64,000 nt of DNA from Enterobacter phage ZX14: the sequence record PP236086.1; one strand, 5' to 3'. Positions 34,677 through 43,480 of the stretch are shown piece by piece; positions within the stretch are counted from its first letter, which is position 1, and every line of letters begins with the position of its first letter. The notes beneath the pieces are model-generated. The model saw nothing but the letters and a program-made list of their open reading frames with translations, was not told where the DNA came from and did no database searches. A program made the translations under genes and the position numbers.

Positions 34677-35606
34677 TCAGTCCTTCTTAAATGGCAGAAT
34701 CATGTGCTGGTTTTTCTTGAAGCGTTCGATGTAATCATTTACGCCAAGCGTTTTATACATATGGACTACTTTATGGTAGTTTTCCCATGCATATTCACGG
34801 AACCAACCACTCGTAATTGACGTACAGACCTTCTCTAGGGCCATCATGAACGAATGTTCTGAAGATACATTCTTGAAGTCATTAGGGACCTGAGAACGTT
34901 CCAGGGCTAACACACAAGTCTCTTCATAGACACCTGCCAGTTTAATAGCTTCAGGTAATGCTTCGAACTTTTCACGACTTGTCATTACTTCAGAACCGTC
35001 TTTCATATAGAAAGTATATGCAGGACGATCCGCCAGAGCTACGGCACGATGGATGCTATCATGGTCCAAAGTGTAAATCGTATCATTAAAGAAAGTATTT
35101 TTGTTTACATCCAGTTTAGGATGATTGTAGTTCAAAGTTTCCTTTTCACGTTCTTTGACGATCAGCTCGAGCTGAGCAGTTAATTTAACGCCTTTATTAC
35201 GAAGGAAACGAATATGTTGCATTGTCTTACGGAAGAATGGGTTGTTCTTCTTATAGCGATGAGAAAGCTTAATAGCCAAGCACATCTCTGGAGTAGCCCA
35301 ATGGAAACCTGAAAGATTATCTTTTTTCAAAAATGTTTGGGCGTATTCAGCCAGCATAATATTAGAACCAGATTTATCAGTCCAGTCGAAAAGATATGCT
35401 TCAAAATATGTTTCGCGGCCATTATGGTGGCATTTAAAAGCACGAACGTTAGGAGTATTAACTTCTACTTCAGCACCCATCATACGGCATTTGAAATCTT
35501 GCCATGCATTAGTTGAGGCAATGAAGTCCCAGTCAGAATTTTTGATATCGTCAGAGCCAATCAAACCATGGTGCTCAAGAGCACGCGAACCGATAACTAA
35601 TAACAT
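34677..35606 (-). CDS. Hypothetical protein (weak NTase-like N-terminus)
   Basis: 309 aa; LVIGSRALEHHGLIGSDDIKNSDWDF is a possible GS...DxD NTase motif (weak). Confidence 0.45.
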   Translation of the reverse strand: MLLVIGSRALEHHGLIGSDDIKNSDWDFIASTNAWQDFKCRMMGAEVEVNTPNVRAFKCHHNGRETYFEAYLFDWTDKSGSNIMLAEYAQTFLKKDNLSGFHWATPEMCLAIKLSHRYKKNNPFFRKTMQHIRFLRNKGVKLTAQLELIVKEREKETLNYNHPKLDVNKNTFFNDTIYTLDHDSIHRAVALADRPAYTFYMKDGSEVMTSREKFEALPEAIKLAGVYEETCVLALERSQVPNDFKNVSSEHSFMMALEKVCTSITSGWFREYAWENYHKVVHMYKTLGVNDYIERFKKNQHMILPFKKD

Positions 35607-35672: not shown

Positions 35673-35945
35673 CTAGATTTCGTAACAATACGTATTGTGC
35701 GTTTCGATGTAATCTTCAAGAGAAGAGCATACTAACGGGTCTGTAGTACCACAGACATCTTCATTATATGGGTCAATGCCACAGTGGGCATCTTCAAATC
35801 GAACACCATAGTCAGACTTTTTATAACTGACACCGAAGATTTGTTTAAACTTCTTACGAGAGATTTTGTGGCACTCTCCATCACCATTAGGATGATACAT
35901 CATAACGTTTACCTCAACAAGAATAGGATGATGACTGCCAACCAT
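35673..35945 (-). CDS. Cys-rich hypothetical protein
   Basis: 90 aa ORF. Confidence 0.4.
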   Translation of the reverse strand: MVGSHHPILVEVNVMMYHPNGDGECHKISRKKFKQIFGVSYKKSDYGVRFEDAHCGIDPYNEDVCGTTDPLVCSSLEDYIETHNTYCYEI

Positions 35946-36111
35946 TGATAATCATGGAGTTGCCATCAACTTGAATAGCTTCACCAAGGTCTAACCCAGA
36001 ACGATCATCAAAATAGATATGGACCATTTCGCGCTCATCAGAGGCAACTTGGAACAGGTTTTCAAGGGCTGCTTTAGCCGTACGTACTGCACAATCTAAT
36101 TCACGAGACAT
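35914..36111 (-). CDS. WxSSSxxC-family small protein (member 1)
   Basis: A 65 aa ORF ending GWQSSSYSC, with the N-terminal helix TAKAALENLF. Confidence 0.5.
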   Translation of the reverse strand: MSRELDCAVRTAKAALENLFQVASDEREMVHIYFDDRSGLDLGEAIQVDGNSMIINGWQSSSYSC

Positions 36112-36379
36112 TTTGATTTCCTCTACACATTTGAATGAAGGACTCGAGGCTAATCTCGTCCTTGTTTACTTCTGTAAACGGCTCCCATAACACTTTAATA
36201 GGGTTCCAGACCATATCAGGCCAAGTGAATGGGTCTGGTTGTTGACGATGATATACGGCTACTGCACGTCTGATATATTCAGTAACATAAATCGAATGTT
36301 CTACATATGACAAAGAAATGCATGTAGTGCTGTCAGTGCCATCGATTTCAAGGTAACCATCTACTATACGAAGTTTCAT
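36101..36379 (-). CDS. Hypothetical protein
   Basis: A 92 aa ORF with a PeSL upstream. Confidence 0.45.
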   Translation of the reverse strand: MKLRIVDGYLEIDGTDSTTCISLSYVEHSIYVTEYIRRAVAVYHRQQPDPFTWPDMVWNPIKVLWEPFTEVNKDEISLESFIQMCRGNQNVS

Positions 36380-36401
36380 ATTTCCTCCTTTATAAACAAG
36401 T

Positions 36402-36436
36402 ACGGGTATCTTATCACTAAGACACCCGTTTGTAAA
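36402..36436 (-). promoter_or_regulatory. PeSL-like early promoter (acgggtatc...gacacccgt + GTTTACA)
   Basis: tgtaaac at 36430-36436. Confidence 0.5.
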
Positions 36437-36439
36437 CTG

Positions 36440-36673
36440 CTAGCAATTCTGCATAGAAGAACTATACCAGAAGCCTTGGTCGTGTGGCAGATAGTTTTCT
36501 TCACGAATCCATTTGTATTCGTCCCACTCATCAGAAGATGCTGGGATGTACTGCTCGTTACCGGCCCAGAAGTGTTCACCTGTTGCTTCGGCGATTTCTT
36601 CACCTTTAGAAATCAGAGCAGAAATGCCTTTAGCAATATCATCAACAGTGTTTACGTCAAATTCAAATTTCAT
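36440..36673 (-). CDS. WxSSSxxC-family small protein (member 2)
   Basis: A 77 aa acidic ORF ending FWYSSSMQNC. Confidence 0.5.
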   Translation of the reverse strand: MKFEFDVNTVDDIAKGISALISKGEEIAEATGEHFWAGNEQYIPASSDEWDEYKWIREENYLPHDQGFWYSSSMQNC

Positions 36674-36682
36674 TTTATTTCC

Positions 36683-36913
36683 TTAACAAGAAGAAGGTTG
36701 CCAGATAGAGCCATCAGCTTCTACATGGAATTCGCGGCCAACTTCTTCGCCGTAGCAAGAAGAATTATTCCAGTCATCAAAACGCATACTACCATCATAG
36801 GTATTGAATTCAAAACCGAAAGAATCGGCAGAAGCCAGTTCGCTTACTTTGTTGAACAGAATGGCAAGTTCTTTAGCTGCTTGTTCGAGTTCAATATTAC
36901 CAGATATAGACAT
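36683..36913 (-). CDS. WxSSSxxC-family small protein (member 3)
   Basis: A 76 aa ORF ending SIWQPSSC, with helix AAKELAILFNKVSELA. Confidence 0.5.
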   Translation of the reverse strand: MSISGNIELEQAAKELAILFNKVSELASADSFGFEFNTYDGSMRFDDWNNSSCYGEEVGREFHVEADGSIWQPSSC

Positions 36914-36922
36914 AATGTTTCC

Positions 36923-37207
36923 TTAGCATTCCATAGAAGATGATACCCAACCACCTGATTCGAGGCTGGTATAATATGAGTGTTGGTTGACGGTGGCCCA
37001 ATTTGGCTTGCCTTGTTCGGTATAATGCTCAAGTTCCTTTTTCAAGAATCCAGGAGAATAATACGTTCCGCCCATACCATAAGCAGGGGCGATTTCAAAA
37101 CTCAGGTCGTATTTGTCAGCGACTTTCTTTGCTTGATTAATAGCTTCAGAAATGGCCGCTTCAGCAGCAGCCATCGCAAGTTCAGGTTTGTGTTTAGACA
37201 TTAGCAC
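36923..37207 (-). CDS. WxSSSxxC-family small protein (member 4)
   Basis: A 94 aa ORF ending GGWVSSSMEC; contains YYSPG. Confidence 0.5.
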   Translation of the reverse strand: MLMSKHKPELAMAAAEAAISEAINQAKKVADKYDLSFEIAPAYGMGGTYYSPGFLKKELEHYTEQGKPNWATVNQHSYYTSLESGGWVSSSMEC

Positions 37208-37518
37208 ATCTCACTTGAAGAAATCCAGGTACCTTCAACCAGATTACCGTTTTCATCAAGTTCGTAATCGTATTGACGGCATGCGTATTCAATATAGTTA
37301 TCTTCGGCATTAGTGCCTTTAGGATAATAGGTCTCACCATTGCCATAATCGCCACGGCTCATAGAAATACCATATTGGTCCATCAGTTGTTCTGCACGAG
37401 CTTCATCTACAGGTTCTAGAAGAGCTTCAATTGCTTTGCGAGCAGAGGCCGCATCGGTAATCAGAGGGATACGAGTTTCAACAACTTCAAAGGCCTGGTT
37501 TTTCAGTTTCTTACTCAT
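37201..37518 (-). CDS. WxSSSxxC-family small protein (member 5)
   Basis: A 105 aa ORF ending GTWISSSEMC; contains YYPKG. Confidence 0.5.
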   Translation of the reverse strand: MSKKLKNQAFEVVETRIPLITDAASARKAIEALLEPVDEARAEQLMDQYGISMSRGDYGNGETYYPKGTNAEDNYIEYACRQYDYELDENGNLVEGTWISSSEMC

Positions 37519-37910
37519 TTTCTTCTCACATTTTTAATAAAAAGTTCAGTTGATTTACGCTCATTAACTAAATCATGAGCAGCTCTTTCTGCCATATATT
37601 CTTTGTTATGTTTCTTCCATGGAAGATATTCTTTAAAGAAATAACTTACACGTTCACTTTGATAGGTCAAATACCAAGATAATGGAAACCCACAAATCAA
37701 ATATTTTGTTGTTTCAACTACCCAAGGCGCAACTTTATCTTTCATGCCTTTATCAAAAATAAGCATATCGGCAAAACAAAAAGCAAGAGCTAATACAGCA
37801 GAAAGAAAAGCCGCTATTAAAAATGAACCAAACCAATCTAAGTTACGACGAAATGTAGGCTTCATTCTATAGTACATCATAGGCTCCTTTACGGGCTTTA
37901 ATATTAGCAC
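37515..37910 (-). CDS. Membrane protein
   Basis: A 131 aa ORF with 2 TM helices. Confidence 0.45.
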   Translation of the reverse strand: MLILKPVKEPMMYYRMKPTFRRNLDWFGSFLIAAFLSAVLALAFCFADMLIFDKGMKDKVAPWVVETTKYLICGFPLSWYLTYQSERVSYFFKEYLPWKKHNKEYMAERAAHDLVNERKSTELFIKNVRRK

Positions 37911-38571
37911 GACATTGGTCTACGAAATCTAAGACAATAATAGAACGGTCCTGATTTCGACCTTTAGCCTTATGGAAATATTCGTCGATTTTAGGGAACC
38001 AATATTCTTTCAAGGATTTAATCTTATCACTGGTATAAGAAAGCTTACCAATGACCGTATCACCCGTAGTAATAATAACACCGAACTTAGTTTTGTTGAA
38101 TTCAAGAGCAATGTAGTATGTATTATCACTACGATTATTAAAAGCAGAAACAGACTTTTTCAATGATTGCCAATTCCGCTCATCATTATTAAAGGCAAAA
38201 ATTGAATATTCTAACGAGTAGATATCAATGATTTTAAGCTGCCCGTGTCCATCTACTTCTTTAAAGAACTTAATGATGTTATTCATATCATTAAGAACAA
38301 ATGCTGGTGCCAACCCCGCTTTAAAATCATTAGAACCAATAGAAGACCTTGATGGAGCCCAGTCACTATTCGTTATTTTTGAACTAGGGTACTTTGCTGC
38401 AATTTTAATAATATCCATTGGTAAACGAGTATTAACAGCAAAACTCTGAATCATATCTCGTTGATTGTGTTTTAAATGACGAGTTACAGCAATCAATTCA
38501 TCCGTGTATTCAGCGCTATTGACACCTGATTTAGGCGAAATATCAGGCCCACAACCTTCGTAAAAACTCAT
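37867..38571 (-). CDS. Hypothetical protein
   Basis: 234 aa ORF. Confidence 0.45.
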   Translation of the reverse strand: MSFYEGCGPDISPKSGVNSAEYTDELIAVTRHLKHNQRDMIQSFAVNTRLPMDIIKIAAKYPSSKITNSDWAPSRSSIGSNDFKAGLAPAFVLNDMNNIIKFFKEVDGHGQLKIIDIYSLEYSIFAFNNDERNWQSLKKSVSAFNNRSDNTYYIALEFNKTKFGVIITTGDTVIGKLSYTSDKIKSLKEYWFPKIDEYFHKAKGRNQDRSIIVLDFVDQCRANIKARKGAYDVL

Positions 38572-38633: not shown

Positions 38634-39227
38634 TTATTTCAGACTTGCCAGATATTCTTCAACATCAGCTTCAGTCGTTACAGTGCCAGGTTCAGCAGTG
38701 TGGAAGGTGTCAACTTTCATCAGAGTATCATCGACGGCAACTTTGGCCAGTGCAGCGATTTCAGTTACATCTTCGGCAGTTGCAACACCAAGAGCAGCAG
38801 CGCTACGAGTTTCACGGATGAATTCGAGCTTAACAGCCAGGTCTTGACGAGCATCGTCCAGCTCAACTACTTTCTGTTCGATTTCTTGACGCATGCCTAC
38901 ATATTCGTCTGCTTTCTTAATCAAAGCTTCAGCAGTACGACGATACAGAAGACCAAGCTTAGCATGAGTGCCTACAGGCTGACCATTTGCCAGGAGACGC
39001 TTGATTTCTTTTTCTTTACTTTCGGCCAGAGTAGTTTTTTCTGCGGCCAGAGCACGGATGCGTTTTTCTTCGTTGATGGATTTCACATGGCTGGTACGCA
39101 GCATAGTGATTTTATCAATCAGAAGGTTAGCAGCTTCAGTGTACTGGTCTTCTACAGTAGTGTTACGAGCAACAAAAGAACCCAGTTTAGCACGGATGAA
39201 TTCAACCAGTTTTTTCAGAATAGCCAT
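38634..39227 (-). CDS. PspA/IM30-family-like coiled-coil protein
   Basis: 197 aa. [15 protein letters not shown]...[28 protein letters not shown] parallels E. coli PspA MGIFSRFADIV...[21 protein letters not shown]. Helical throughout. Confidence 0.5.
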
Positions 39228-40918: not shown

Positions 40919-41336
40919 ACCCGCCCTAGATACCCGAAAGGGCTCCCATTTCTGAGAACCCTTTCGAATCGGCGCTGTACGTAGTCGCACCTAGAGGTAC
41001 CATTCGCCTTACGGTTTCATTTGCGATATCCACCGTCGTTCGTTTAAGTTGATTTGTCATAGGGCTCGAACCTACACGCTTAGGTCTGTCGCACCGGTTT
41101 CCGCCTTACTCACCTGGGTACCAACCAGGGTTTCAAACAAGCTATTCCAGTCGTGTCTACCAAATTTCACCACACAAATCATAAATTATACGGAACGCCG
41201 GGGCATGCACCCGGTTATAAAGCAGTTGACGCTACTCTATATTTTTAAGAGGCGAGCATCTCGACCATATCCGAACGTTTCGTCAAAAACGCTACTCGGC
41301 TTACGGCAAAGATGGGTCCTCGAACCGTTTGTTTAG

Positions 41337-41410
41337 AGGCGGGTGATGGACTCGAACCATCGCATATCGGGATATGAACCCGACCTTCTACCAACTGAAT
41401 GTAACCCGCA
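41337..41410 (-). tRNA. tRNA with anticodon CAU (Met or lysidine-Ile)
   Basis: The reverse complement gives GCGGGTTACATTCAGTTGGTAG...TCGGG-TTCATAT-CCCGA...GATGG-TTCGAGT-CCATC-ACCCGC. Cloverleaf with T-loop TTCGAGT; anticodon loop TTCATAT. Confidence 0.7.
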
Positions 41411-41674
41411 TTTGTCCGGGTCCAGAGAGTACTAATAAGTAGGCTGTAGTAGAACCCATTGACTAGAATCAATGAGGGAACATGAACCTTTAGCCCCGGC
41501 ATTATCTTATGGACTTCAAACTCTTCTCTCTAGACTGCCTCGTATTATTGCGCCCATCTTGCTGTGGCATTAGACCATGAAGCATTACCGAAATCGCCTG
41601 ATTACGTTAATGTCTGGGTGCTATCCAGGGAACAGAGCTTGGACGGCTTTCCATATCGTCATATGGATTTCTGT

Positions 41675-41750
41675 TGGGGTGACCTGTGGGACTTGAACCC
41701 ACGACTACAAGAATCACAATCTTGAATTCTACCAACTGAATTAAGGCCAC
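41675..41750 (-). tRNA. tRNA-His (GUG)
   Basis: The reverse complement is GTGGCCTTAATTCAGTTGGTAGAATTCAAGATTGTGATTCTTGTAGTCGTGGGTTCAAGTCCCACAGGTCACCCCA. Anticodon loop TTGTGAT; CCA encoded. Confidence 0.8.
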
Positions 41751-41781
41751 ATCAATATTCACTCGTAAATGAATATTAATT

Positions 41782-41857
41782 TGGCTAGGGTATCAGGACT
41801 CGAACCTGAGCATAATGGGATCAAAACCCACTGCCTTACCAACTTGGCTATACCCTA
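41782..41857 (-). tRNA. tRNA-Gln (UUG)
   Basis: The reverse complement is TAGGGTATAGCCAAGTTGGTAAGGCAGTGGGTTTTGATCCCATTATGCTCAGGTTCGAGTCCTGATACCCTAGCCA. Anticodon loop TTTTGAT. Confidence 0.8.
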
Positions 41858-41953
41858 TTTAACTGGCGGTTAGTGCAGGTATCGATACCTGCCTTGTCCT
41901 AAGACACGGATTAACAGTCCGTCGCTTCCCCTCTCAGCCAACTAACCGGAATT

Positions 41954-42032
41954 TGGTGGTTGTGCCTGGAATCGAACCAGGGTTCCTAAATTTAACTAAA
42001 GGGCGCTTATGCCTGCTTGGCGCGACACAACC
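41954..42032 (-). tRNA. tRNA-like gene, anticodon ambiguous (possibly UAA); non-canonical D-loop and variable-loop lengths
   Basis: The reverse complement is GGTTGTGTCGCGCCAAGCAGGCATAAGCGCCCTTTAGTTAAATTTAGGAACCCTGGTTCGATTCCAGGCACAACCACCA. The acceptor and T-arm are clean, but the anticodon stem (CTTTA/TTAGG) has a mismatch. Confidence 0.55.
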
Positions 42033-42038
42033 TGAATT

Positions 42039-42114
42039 TGGTGGGTCTGGATGGACTCGAACCATCGACACCCGCATTAAAAGTGCGGTGCTCTACCAAC
42101 TAAGCTACAAACCC
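42039..42114 (-). tRNA. tRNA-Lys (UUU)
   Basis: The reverse complement is GGGTTTGTAGCTTAGTTGGTAGAGCACCGCACTTTTAATGCGGGTGTCGATGGTTCGAGTCCATCCAGACCCACCA. Anticodon loop CTTTTAA. Confidence 0.8.
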
Positions 42115-42196
42115 ATATTACTGTTCTTTAGTCGAGCCGACTTGTCCGTATTCTTTCAACGGTGAGCTGATAGCTGTAACAGTAATACTCTAAATT

Positions 42197-42284
42197 TGGT
42201 GGGGAGTGATGGAGTCGAACCACCCGAGTCGCAATGACAACAGATTTACAGTCTGCACCGCTACCTCTACGGAATTAACTCCCC
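42197..42284 (-). tRNA. tRNA-Tyr (GUA), type II
   Basis: The reverse complement is GGGGAGTTAATTCCGTAGAGGTAGCGGTGCAGACTGTAAATCTGTTGTCATTGCGACTCGGGTGGTTCGACTCCATCACTCCCCACCA. Anticodon loop CTGTAAA; long variable arm. Confidence 0.75.
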
Positions 42285-42297
42285 GTGATACTTTTAT

Positions 42298-42540
42298 TTA
42301 TTCAGTATATCTCTTGAACTGTAAAGCAAAATCTTCATCAACCTTAGTCAAGAAGTGTCCTGCCTTAAATCGTTTAGAGCTACCTTCAACTTCTACACCG
42401 TAACCGTTCTTACCAAGGACTCGACCAACTCGCATTTCACCAGGGTCACCCATTGAATTACAACGAACACCATATAGAACAAAATCATTTTCGAACACCG
42501 GAGTTTGTTTCCGATCTTTAATTAATTCTATCATATTCAC
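42298..42540 (-). CDS. Hypothetical protein embedded in tRNA cluster
   Basis: 80 aa ORF. Confidence 0.4.
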   Translation of the reverse strand: MNMIELIKDRKQTPVFENDFVLYGVRCNSMGDPGEMRVGRVLGKNGYGVEVEGSSKRFKAGHFLTKVDEDFALQFKRYTE

Positions 42541-42541
42541 C

Positions 42542-42997
42542 TTAAAGCATATTACGTTTTAAGTTTTCACGAACTCGATAAAGGTTTGAACAGAATTCCT
42601 GTTCGGTTAGAACGGTTTCATTCTTTTTCGACTTGCCCATCGAGTGAGTTAATGTAGAGTTCTGTGTAGCCAGAAGTGCTCTCTTGAACCCTTCATTACG
42701 TCCTAATTCATTATATGCACGTTCAATAAGAAGTCTGTAGGCGTCACTCTGACGTTGCATAGGCACACCTTTCCAGTACAGGGTTTGAGTACGCCACCAC
42801 TTCTTTTTCTTACCTTTGAACTTAGCTGCTTTACCAACTAGAGTACAAACATGTTCTTGCATTTCGACTGAACTAAATTTCAGTGATTGCAAAAATCCTT
42901 CCATCGAAGCACATTCTACACCATCAATTGTAAAAGCATGAGGTGCAAAATTACTTAATGCAGATGAAGGATAACCTGAACCTGAACCAATATCCAT
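42542..42997 (-). CDS. Hypothetical basic protein embedded in tRNA cluster
   Basis: 151 aa. The N-terminal DIGSGSGY resembles SAM-binding motif I. A Lys-rich patch (KFKGKKKKWWR) suggests nucleic-acid binding. Confidence 0.45.
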   Translation of the reverse strand: MDIGSGSGYPSSALSNFAPHAFTIDGVECASMEGFLQSLKFSSVEMQEHVCTLVGKAAKFKGKKKKWWRTQTLYWKGVPMQRQSDAYRLLIERAYNELGRNEGFKRALLATQNSTLTHSMGKSKKNETVLTEQEFCSNLYRVRENLKRNML

Positions 42998-43254
42998 TAT
43001 TCATTTTCCTTTTCAAGAAGGAACATATACATATCGTCATGGTCTTGCATAACGTTTTCAAATTGTGATTCGTATTCAGCCAATGGTGCAGAACCAAGCC
43101 AGTTAGCACATTGAATACGTAAGTCGCCATTAGCGCCTTGATAAATCAAAGCTTCAGAATATCCACCTGAAGCCCATTCGATAATTGCATGTCCTAAACG
43201 ATATTTCATTATATTTTCCTCAGTGTCTGGTGTCCCCTGATGGATTCGAACCAT
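42997..43254 (-). CDS. Hypothetical protein embedded in tRNA cluster
   Basis: 85 aa ORF. Confidence 0.4.
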   Translation of the reverse strand: MVRIHQGTPDTEENIMKYRLGHAIIEWASGGYSEALIYQGANGDLRIQCANWLGSAPLAEYESQFENVMQDHDDMYMFLLEKENE

Positions 43255-43304
43255 CGACCCACAGCTTAGAAGGCTGTTGCTCTATCCGGCTGAGCTAAGA
43301 GGAC
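43228..43304 (-). tRNA. tRNA-Arg (UCU)
   Basis: The reverse complement is GTCCTCTTAGCTCAGCCGGATAGAGCAACAGCCTTCTAAGCTGTGGGTCGATGGTTCGAATCCATCAGGGGACACCA. Anticodon loop CTTCTAA. Confidence 0.8.
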
Positions 43305-43307
43305 GAA

Positions 43308-43385
43308 ATGGTGGCCCTTCTGGGAGTCTAACCCAGCTTACACCGGTTATGAGCCGGGTACTTTCACGCGACAGTACAAAGGGCC
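43308..43385 (-). tRNA. tRNA with anticodon CAU (second Met/Ile-type), unusual T-loop TTAGACT
   Basis: The reverse complement is GGCCCTTTGTACTGTCGCGTGAAAGTACCCGGCTCATAACCGGTGTAAGCTGGGTTAGACTCCCAGAAGGGCCACCA. Confidence 0.65.
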
Positions 43386-43394
43386 TGAATAATT

Positions 43395-43480
43395 TGGTGC
43401 ACCGAGTGGGACTTGAACCCACAATCCATAAGGCGTATCATTTTAAGTGATATATGTATACCAATTCCATCATCGGTGCG
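43395..43480 (-). tRNA. tRNA-Leu (UAA), type II
   Basis: The reverse complement is GCACCGATGATGGAATTGGTATACATATATCACTTAAAATGATACGCCTTATGGATTGTGGGTTCAAGTCCCACTCGGTGCACCA. Anticodon loop CTTAAAA. Confidence 0.75.

Follow-up and report, generated by a model that had tools for sequence, protein, structure and literature searches.

The 64,000-nucleotide stretch of the genome of Enterobacter phage ZX14 analysed here (PP236086.1; hereafter, the window) carries an array of five small minus-strand genes, A to E, the products of which end in a common tail built on invariant Trp, Ser, Ser and Cys residues. Analysis of gene neighbourhoods revealed a near-obligate, same-strand and short-range linkage, maintained in diverse phages, between genes of this family and the gene for an enzyme with a predicted nucleotidyltransferase fold. 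The products of the family genes and of the enzyme gene thus appear to function together.

A family of phage proteins with a common C-terminal tail

The five open reading frames (ORFs), encoding proteins of 65-105 amino acids (aa), were confirmed with the coordinates and translations given in an earlier reading of the sequence (hereafter, the original prediction), apart from the start of one of them, and a sequence resembling a ribosome-binding site lies ahead of every start codon.

A: 35914-36111, minus strand, 65 aa; tail ...GWQSSSYSC, with WQSSSYSC at 35917-35940; PHROG 4882, E = 3.5e-30
B: 36440-36673, minus strand, 77 aa; tail ...FWYSSSMQNC, with WYSSSMQNC at 36443-36469; PHROG 899, E = 3.9e-11
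C: 36683-36913, minus strand, 76 aa; tail ...SIWQPSSC, with WQPSSC at 36686-36703; PHROG 899, E = 7.2e-08
D: 36923-37201, minus strand, 92 aa; tail ...GGWVSSSMEC, with WVSSSMEC at 36926-36949; PHROG 899, E = 3.7e-18
E: 37201-37518, minus strand, 105 aa; tail ...GTWISSSEMC, with WISSSEMC at 37204-37227; PHROG 899, E = 1.2e-16

The ORF previously delimited as 36923..37207 is real, but the most likely start codon of D is the ATG at 37201 rather than the GTG at 37207, because the annotated homologues begin with MSKHKP; this ATG overlaps the stop codon of E as TAATG. The motif originally described as G-x-W-x-SSS-x-x-C stands in part: the W, S, S and C columns are invariant across A-E, whereas G-x-W is not, being replaced by S-I-W in C. 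The spacing varies to some extent, the tail of B being one residue longer (W to C = 8) and that of C representing a short form. A count of stop-to-stop ORFs with a minimum length of 25 aa gave 1,297 in the whole window, of which only A-E end in W.{1,2}SS.{0,4}C, and a terminal Cys of any kind is found in just 10 window ORFs of at least 50 aa. The Ser codons differ among the copies (tct, tca, agt, tcc), and what is conserved is therefore the protein rather than a DNA repeat. C contains a second, internal copy of the motif (WNNSSC, 36755-36772, residues 48-53), and D holds a YGMGGTYY loop, the YGMGGTY stretch of which is invariant in the alignment of the family subset that includes D. The five proteins are all acidic, as had been proposed, with isoelectric points (pI) of 4.33, 4.20, 4.07, 5.51 and 4.32 for A to E, respectively. 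The N-terminal helix of the original prediction was likewise recovered in the family alignment and in the AlphaFold model of E (predicted local distance difference test, pLDDT, 82), which comprises a helical hairpin (helices 23-34 and 39-49) and a small sheet, with W98-S101 forming a strand.

That A-E make up a genuine paralogous family is borne out by PHROG matches and profile searches. At the sequence level, the homology of B-E is solid, because all four match PHROG 899. A is the most divergent member: a hidden Markov model (HMM) built without A-type sequences recognizes its tail only (E = 0.18), hhalign aligns A with the rest of the family over 58 columns (85.6% probability, E = 5.6e-6), and an A-type copy lies within the module in other Kanagawavirus, Dhakavirus and Mosigvirus loci. 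No match to A-E was found in Pfam, NCBIfam, solved structures or PADLOC, the latter holding models of defence rather than anti-defence systems. The stretch EGTWISSS of E bears some resemblance to DGEWVLLS of the fibritin foldon, and a foldon-like tail was rejected by hhalign (probability 0.5%).

A profile of the five proteins retrieved 98 small phage proteins from a collection of 5.8 billion proteins, and a profile of 77 members retrieved 425 representatives at 50% identity from 1.84 billion proteins, with E-values down to 1e-25 and with the matches nearly always reaching the last residue. Among the best 150 of the 425 representatives, Cys is the last residue in 140 and is followed by one further residue in 8 more. 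Trp lies exactly 7 residues before Cys in 147 of 148 tails; W+3 is Ser in 147/147, W+4 is Ser in 139 and Thr in 7, and W+2 is Ser, Ala or Pro. The consensus of the tag is W-x-[S/A/P]-S-[S/T]-x-x-C-COOH, with a short form, W-x-x-S-S-C, as in C. Extra internal W..S..C copies are present in 10 of the 150 representatives, as compared with 0.2 expected from shuffled sequences. The common architecture consists of an N-terminal helical hairpin, a strand A-D-x-x-G-x-x-F, a variable acidic stretch and the tail, with a YGMGGTYY or YGNGETYY loop in many members; in the family alignment, the N-terminal helix is weakly conserved in sequence, whereas the tail is invariant.

The family is represented in JS98-like, RB69-like, Klebsiella, Serratia and Citrobacter T4-like phages, in Aeromonas phages, in Phapecoctavirus and on 370-kb jumbo-phage contigs, with E being the most widespread type (440 phage records by tblastn). 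The five paralogue types recur in PEi20 and Klebsiella phages, JS98-type Dhakavirus phages have all of them in a different order, and RB69-type loci have three of the five. The presence of the same types across genera implies that the duplications are old and that each copy has been maintained, at variance with the original description of the genes as rapidly duplicating. This pattern favours distinct, maintained roles of the paralogue types and speaks against a recent expansion. In the RB69 reference genome (L005; NC_004928, 3995-4301), the E-type gene is in two pieces, ORF139c and ORF138c, the latter ending in WVSSPALC, with the conserved Ser at W+4 changed to Pro; an intact 101-aa E-type copy ending in WVSSSALC is present in the RB69-like contigs L015 and L016. 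Either the split gene has become a pseudogene or the reference contains a sequencing error.

The tail also occurs in larger proteins. At a number of loci (L079, L080, L081, L087, L090, L093-L097, L100, L111, L128), proteins of 139-172 aa encoded upstream of the enzyme gene carry the C-terminal module, namely a helix, a strand A[DN]EYxIxF and the W..SS..C tail, behind an extra N-terminal domain; examples end in DAVDWDSSSMYC, LDENSDWDSSRC and GSHAWCSSSMIC, and one type ends in ...GWISSSICW, with a Trp after the Cys. A 155-aa protein (L120, 4120-4587) ending in GWDRSDSSC holds two tandem helix-strand modules, indicating that the unit can duplicate inside one gene.

Linkage to the gene of a predicted nucleotidyltransferase

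In JS98, RB69, Phapecoctavirus nieznany and Aeromonas phage 25, the small genes are closely followed by a gene for a protein of about 300 aa. Its counterpart in the window, a context absent from the original prediction, is encoded on the same strand as A, about 0.3 kb away (A ends at 35914 and the enzyme gene starts at 35606).

Partner enzyme: 34677-35606, minus strand, 309 aa, pI 8.15; Pfam DUF7277 and DUF7275

Co-occurrence was scored within flanks of 5-8 kb, and loci on the family side were fetched with the YGMGGTY-containing subset of the alignment. Only two gene clusters, the family and the enzyme, are present in 38/38 of the loci holding both; the sole family-fetched loci devoid of the enzyme gene are L015, L022 and L026, in which the contig ends there. 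On the enzyme side, HMM-supported family genes lie upstream on the same strand in 69 of the 80 fetched loci and tag-ending ORFs are found in 6 more, with no tagged ORF in the remaining 5, which come from two lineages. When 127 enzyme genes were pooled and dereplicated at 70% identity, tagged ORFs accompanied 42 of 45 lineages, 40 of these having been detected by script and two (L068 and L125) by hand, as a start-codon overlap had hidden the tail ORFs. The exceptions are the lineage represented by L085, L086, L092 and L106 and two actinophage proteins in which the C-terminal domain alone is matched. The gap between the enzyme gene and the nearest small gene has a median of 308 nucleotides (nt) and stays within 1,500 nt in 117/118 cases. 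The number of family copies per locus ranges from one (15 loci) through two (41), three (18), four (12) and five (31) to six (one locus).

The approximately 120 paired loci include T4-like phages, Phapecoctavirus, Otagovirus, Acinetobacter phages and 370-kb jumbo phages. Their neighbourhoods differ, the module adjoining nrdD in Aeromonas phage 25 and lying between genes 41 and 61 in Acinetobacter phage Berthold, and the pairing is therefore not explained by shared flanks. The enzyme is encoded in 732 phage records and forms more than 2,100 clusters in a large protein collection, and it was found in merely 5 of 185,579 species genomes. All five hits are on contigs of metagenome-assembled genomes (MAGs), possibly mis-binned phages (one of 167 kb), and tagged ORFs are present on 5/5 of them. 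The family and the enzyme are, accordingly, essentially restricted to phages, and an origin from a bacterial toxin–antitoxin (TA) system or defence island was discarded in view of the practical absence of the enzyme from these species genomes. No fusion of a small protein with the enzyme was detected among the top 120 enzyme homologues, and apparent long ORFs at L024, L029 and L030 reflect the calling of upstream start codons. At L092, the enzyme gene itself is split.

In T4, neither the family nor the partner was found in the regions scanned (1-50 kb and 62-76 kb). The T4 genes e.2, e.3 and e.4, which occupy the syntenic position between nudE and e.5 and encode membrane or other proteins, lack the motif and the tail of the family, so that A-E are not homologues of the T4 e.x genes, in agreement with the original prediction, and T4 nrdC.3 (308 aa), considered as a partner because of its size, proved unrelated.

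The AlphaFold model of the 309-aa partner (pLDDT 93) displays a Pol-beta-type nucleotidyltransferase core, formed by DUF7277 and the start of DUF7275, followed by a conserved helical C-terminal domain. The closest structures are MenT1, MenT3, MenT4 and ANT(2''), with a Foldseek E-value of 3.5e-4 and a probability of 1.0 for MenT1. The 62 homologues aligned, which reach down to 43% identity, all share residues G6, S7, D25, D27 and E69; G6-S7 and D25-x-D27, which represent Pol-beta motifs I and II, and E69 fit the hG[GS], metal-binding [DE]h[DE]h and third-carboxylate signature of Pol-beta nucleotidyltransferases (PMC7450476). The C-terminal helical half is highly conserved as well, with invariant H162, H182, D183, H186, E228, E229, C231 and C261. 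No convincing structural match was obtained for this domain of about 150 aa, which is an addition relative to MenT, and an HD domain found no support in structure or Pfam searches. The 62 homologues also differ from MenT in having no match to Pfam DUF1814/AbiEii at E up to 10, and the K113-L-S-H116-R117 segment bears only a loose resemblance to motif IV, the family-specific C-terminal motif of DUF1814. The partner is, as judged from its model, MenT-like in structure but not a member of the DUF1814/MenT/AbiEii family. The annotation 'putative nucleotidyltransferase' is already attached to the gene in two Acinetobacter phage records.

Two actinophage genes depart from this picture: the products of Streptomyces phage Limpid gp203 (L129) and Gordonia phage ClubL gp16 (L130), of about 250-260 aa, match the DUF7275 part only, and no tagged ORFs were found near either gene. 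The gene for gp203 lies three genes downstream of an RNA ligase and that for gp16 precedes a tRNA cluster, which hints at an RNA-related role of its own for the DUF7275 C-terminal domain.

Alternative roles of the tail and the enzyme

The explanation we favour, to which we assign slightly less than an even chance, is that the small genes and the enzyme gene constitute a two-component phage module in which the tag engages the enzyme and a hydroxyl of the tail is the probable acceptor. The W-x-x-S-S-x-x-C tag would bring the small protein to the active site of the enzyme, a Ser or Ser/Thr hydroxyl at W+3 and W+4 would accept a nucleotidyl or phosphoryl group from a nucleoside triphosphate, and a single enzyme would mark one to six different tagged clients early in infection. 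We infer the physical interaction, the acceptor role of the tail and the kind of chemistry. The invariant residues of the family are nucleophiles of the tail rather than helix positions, which supports the tail as acceptor, and the interchange of Ser and Thr at W+4 points to a hydroxyl function. One enzyme accompanied by several diverged, yet individually conserved, tagged proteins is the pattern expected of clients that share a recognition tag, and the occurrence of the tag behind other N-terminal domains and in tandem or internal repeats fits the same notion. Furthermore, the nearest structural relatives of the enzyme move nucleoside monophosphates (NMP) onto hydroxyl groups, namely the 3'-OH of tRNA in the case of MenT and antibiotic hydroxyls in the case of ANT(2'') and Lnu, again supporting a hydroxyl acceptor, and MenT1 and MenT3 phosphorylate their own active-site Thr or Ser (PMC11375011). 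The linkage to a nucleotidyltransferase gene also lends indirect support to the original suggestion of a modified or ligand-binding Ser/Cys tail.

Several observations weigh against this explanation. One enzyme lineage with a full-length nucleotidyltransferase (L085, L086, L092 and L106) lacks tagged ORFs in the 5 kb to each side. In the AlphaFold model of E, W98-S101 is part of a beta-strand with a pLDDT of about 95, so that the Ser at W+3 may be less exposed than it would be in a free tail, with only the last four or five residues being looser. The known protein-modifying Pol-beta nucleotidyltransferases, such as GlnD, GlnE, DrrA and MntA, mostly target Tyr rather than Ser, and the nearest structural relatives of the enzyme act on RNA 3' ends, not on proteins. 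Finally, simple O-nucleotidylylation leaves the invariant terminal Cys without explanation.

A stronger formulation, namely a dedicated protein-tagging system of large virulent phages in which the MenT-like enzyme covalently modifies a portable C-terminal tag on an array of small proteins, is conceivable but distinctly less likely than the broader proposal. It would involve Ser-O-nucleotidylylation or phosphorylation, possibly followed by elimination and formation of a Ser-Cys cross-link. Precedents for enzyme–protein pairs of this general kind exist: MntA nucleotidylylates its adjacently encoded partner HepT and GlnD nucleotidylylates PII, both enzymes being of the Pol-beta type and both modifications covalent. 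The proposed module would resemble MntA-HepT (MNT-HEPN, a type VII TA system) and GlnD-PII in combining a Pol-beta enzyme with a protein partner.

Under TA-like regulation, the enzyme would act on RNA, for example on the 3' ends of tRNA, like MenT, or on damaged RNA ends, like RlaP, and the small acidic proteins would inhibit or regulate it. Their amphipathic N-terminal helix would make the contact, in the way that MenA1 contacts MenT1, and the tail might serve as a pseudo-substrate that plugs the enzyme. We regard this as the main rival, although on balance rather unlikely. The comparison rests on MenT1-MenA1 (Rv0078A/Rv0078B) of the MenAT/AbiE DUF1814 TA systems, given that MenT1, MenT3 and MenT4 are the best structural matches of the partner. 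MenT1 is neutralized by a 68-aa helical protein encoded immediately upstream, the first helix of which suffices, and MenA1 both blocks MenT1 and induces its autophosphorylation (PMC10435456, PMC11375011). The phage module has the same gene order, with one or more small helical acidic proteins encoded upstream and the enzyme downstream; the pI of the small proteins, 4.1-5.5, contrasts with that of the mildly basic enzyme (8.15), and S7 of the invariant G-S motif could be a site of autophosphorylation. However, an antitoxin is normally the product of one gene, whereas here one to six genes lie upstream and up to six diverged paralogues are kept across genera. Unlike MenA antitoxins, the phage proteins carry the invariant Ser/Cys tag, and it is the helix that is poorly conserved in sequence and the tail nucleophiles that are invariant. 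The family profile found no similarity to the MenA1 chain in the PDB (8AN5), and the module was not found in bacterial chromosomes, the home of such TA pairs, among the 185,579 species genomes. A translation toxin would also be of no obvious use to a virulent phage.

Two further kinds of nucleotidyltransferase bear comparison. ANT(2'')-Ia and LnuA, with 9-12% identity to the partner, act on small-molecule acceptors, have no partner proteins and are resistance rather than phage genes. RlaP (PF10127), which adds 1-2 NMP to RNA 3'-OH ends (bioRxiv 10.64898/2025.12.29.696909; PMC7824862), is, like the partner, a phage-borne Pol-beta nucleotidyltransferase of similar size, known from bacteria as well, but its gene is linked to RNA ligase genes and not to genes for tagged small proteins; membership in this family was rejected, as none of the 62 homologues matched PF10127 at E up to 10. 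The proteins of the module are already included in PHROG 899, PHROG 4882, DUF7275 and DUF7277, all labelled 'unknown function'. No paper on the tag, the pairing or the fold assignment of the enzyme was found in the library consulted, which is incomplete, such that a description elsewhere is possible.

It appears improbable that the small proteins are independent effectors, that is, stand-alone host-takeover or anti-defence factors, in line with the original prediction, with a tail that binds a metal or a host target, and that the enzyme gene is merely co-inherited in an early-gene cassette. Such a role would suit small, acidic proteins encoded in an early-type variable region, between the homologues of nudE and e.5/e.6, in a copy number that differs among phages. 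Nevertheless, synteny is kept in groups that share almost no other neighbours (Straboviridae, Stephanstirmvirinae, Otagovirus and the 370-kb jumbo contigs), and the module occupies different genome positions, and a pair conserved in this way would hardly be expected in the absence of a functional link.

Somewhat less probable still is a lanthipeptide-like cross-link, which would be a special case of the favoured two-component module: the enzyme would activate the tail Ser by phosphorylating or nucleotidylylating it, elimination would yield dehydroalanine, and the Cys thiol would add to give a lanthionine-type ring (S-x-x-x-C, or S-x-C in short tails), perhaps with the help of the His/Asp/Glu/Cys-rich C-terminal domain of the enzyme, in which the eight His, Asp, Glu and Cys residues listed above are invariant. 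The Ser-Cys spacing is fixed in each form of the tail, the Ser is invariant and the W..S..C unit is repeated internally in some members; lanthipeptide classes II to V, moreover, dehydrate Ser via phosphorylation. On the other side, Pfam scans of the neighbours detected no LanB, LanM, LanKC, LanL or LanC-like domain, we know of no nucleotidyltransferase-dependent dehydratase, the carriers are predicted to be folded proteins of 65-105 aa rather than leader-core peptides, and the proposal is purely inferential. The suspicion that the tails are frame-shifted noise, or the ORFs chance or mis-called ones, to which the small ORF size alone might lend credence, is refuted by the 425 clusters at 50% identity with E-values down to 1e-25, the PHROG matches, the RBS-like sequences (ribosome-binding sites) before the starts and the synonymous variation under a conserved peptide.

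Genomic setting and implications of the module

The region shares about 94% identity with Enterobacter phage vB_EclM_Q7622 and with its relatives in Kanagawavirus (T4-like Straboviridae), and the five minus-strand ORFs are flanked by homologues of T4 e/nudE and e.5/e.6. Additional features of the region are as follows.

35673-35903, minus strand: Cys-rich 76-aa ORF between A and the enzyme gene; PHROG 3723, E = 3.6e-32
36101-36379, minus strand: 92-aa ORF between B and A; PHROG 32323, E = 4.8e-44
36402-36436, minus strand: promoter-like site in the 60-nt gap after B (TTTACA, 17 nt, TAAGAT); a match in a consensus scan only
37515-37910, minus strand: predicted membrane protein upstream of the array, without Pfam domain; PHROG 31588
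37867-38571 and 38634-39227, minus strand: homologues of the ORFs annotated e.5 and e.6 in phage PEi20, upstream of the array, without Pfam domain
41336-43479, minus strand: seven tRNA genes (Met, His, Gln, Lys, Arg, Met, Leu)

The promoter-like site, which we liken to a T4 early promoter, lies just upstream of the 36101-36379 ORF and overlaps a 12-bp hairpin followed by T-rich sequence. With such a site and hairpin after gene B, the array may be split into two transcription units. The 36101-36379 ORF does not belong to the family or to the universal module, being seen in 10/38 loci only. The 35673-35903 ORF, which encodes five Cys and the longest reading of which extends to 35945, has no match in Pfam and accompanies the module in a subset of loci only; its BLAST-linked cluster is present in 16/38 loci but includes 12 ORFs that match the family HMM, rendering its own count uncertain. 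In T4-like phages, this ORF may belong to the module as an accessory component. The 37515-37910 protein resembles T4 e.3/e.4 solely in being a membrane protein, and the GC content rises to 0.45 at 40-42 kb of the window.

The module is common and phage-specific, with all of its proteins labelled as being of 'unknown function', and the phages that carry it infect Enterobacteria, Acinetobacter, Pseudomonas, Aeromonas and Vibrio; the genes are also present in many therapeutic-phage genomes (Klebsiella, Enterobacter, Acinetobacter and E. coli). With the link to a MenT-like enzyme, five hitherto anonymous ORFs become part of a defined hypothesis involving two proteins. If the small proteins act as inhibitors, virulent phages would carry enzyme-regulator pairs akin to MenT/AbiE, with a bearing on AbiE, which is among the most abundant abortive-infection defences (PMC11375011). 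If, instead, the tail is the substrate, the module would represent a new kind of phage protein modification, operating early in infection, and, should the protein-tagging scheme hold, a new pathway of post-translational modification by a type of enzyme known so far for tRNA ends and antibiotics. Compared with known systems, the module would be a variation on the theme of a nucleotidyltransferase with a small partner protein, and would be categorically new if the tail proves to be the substrate of modification.

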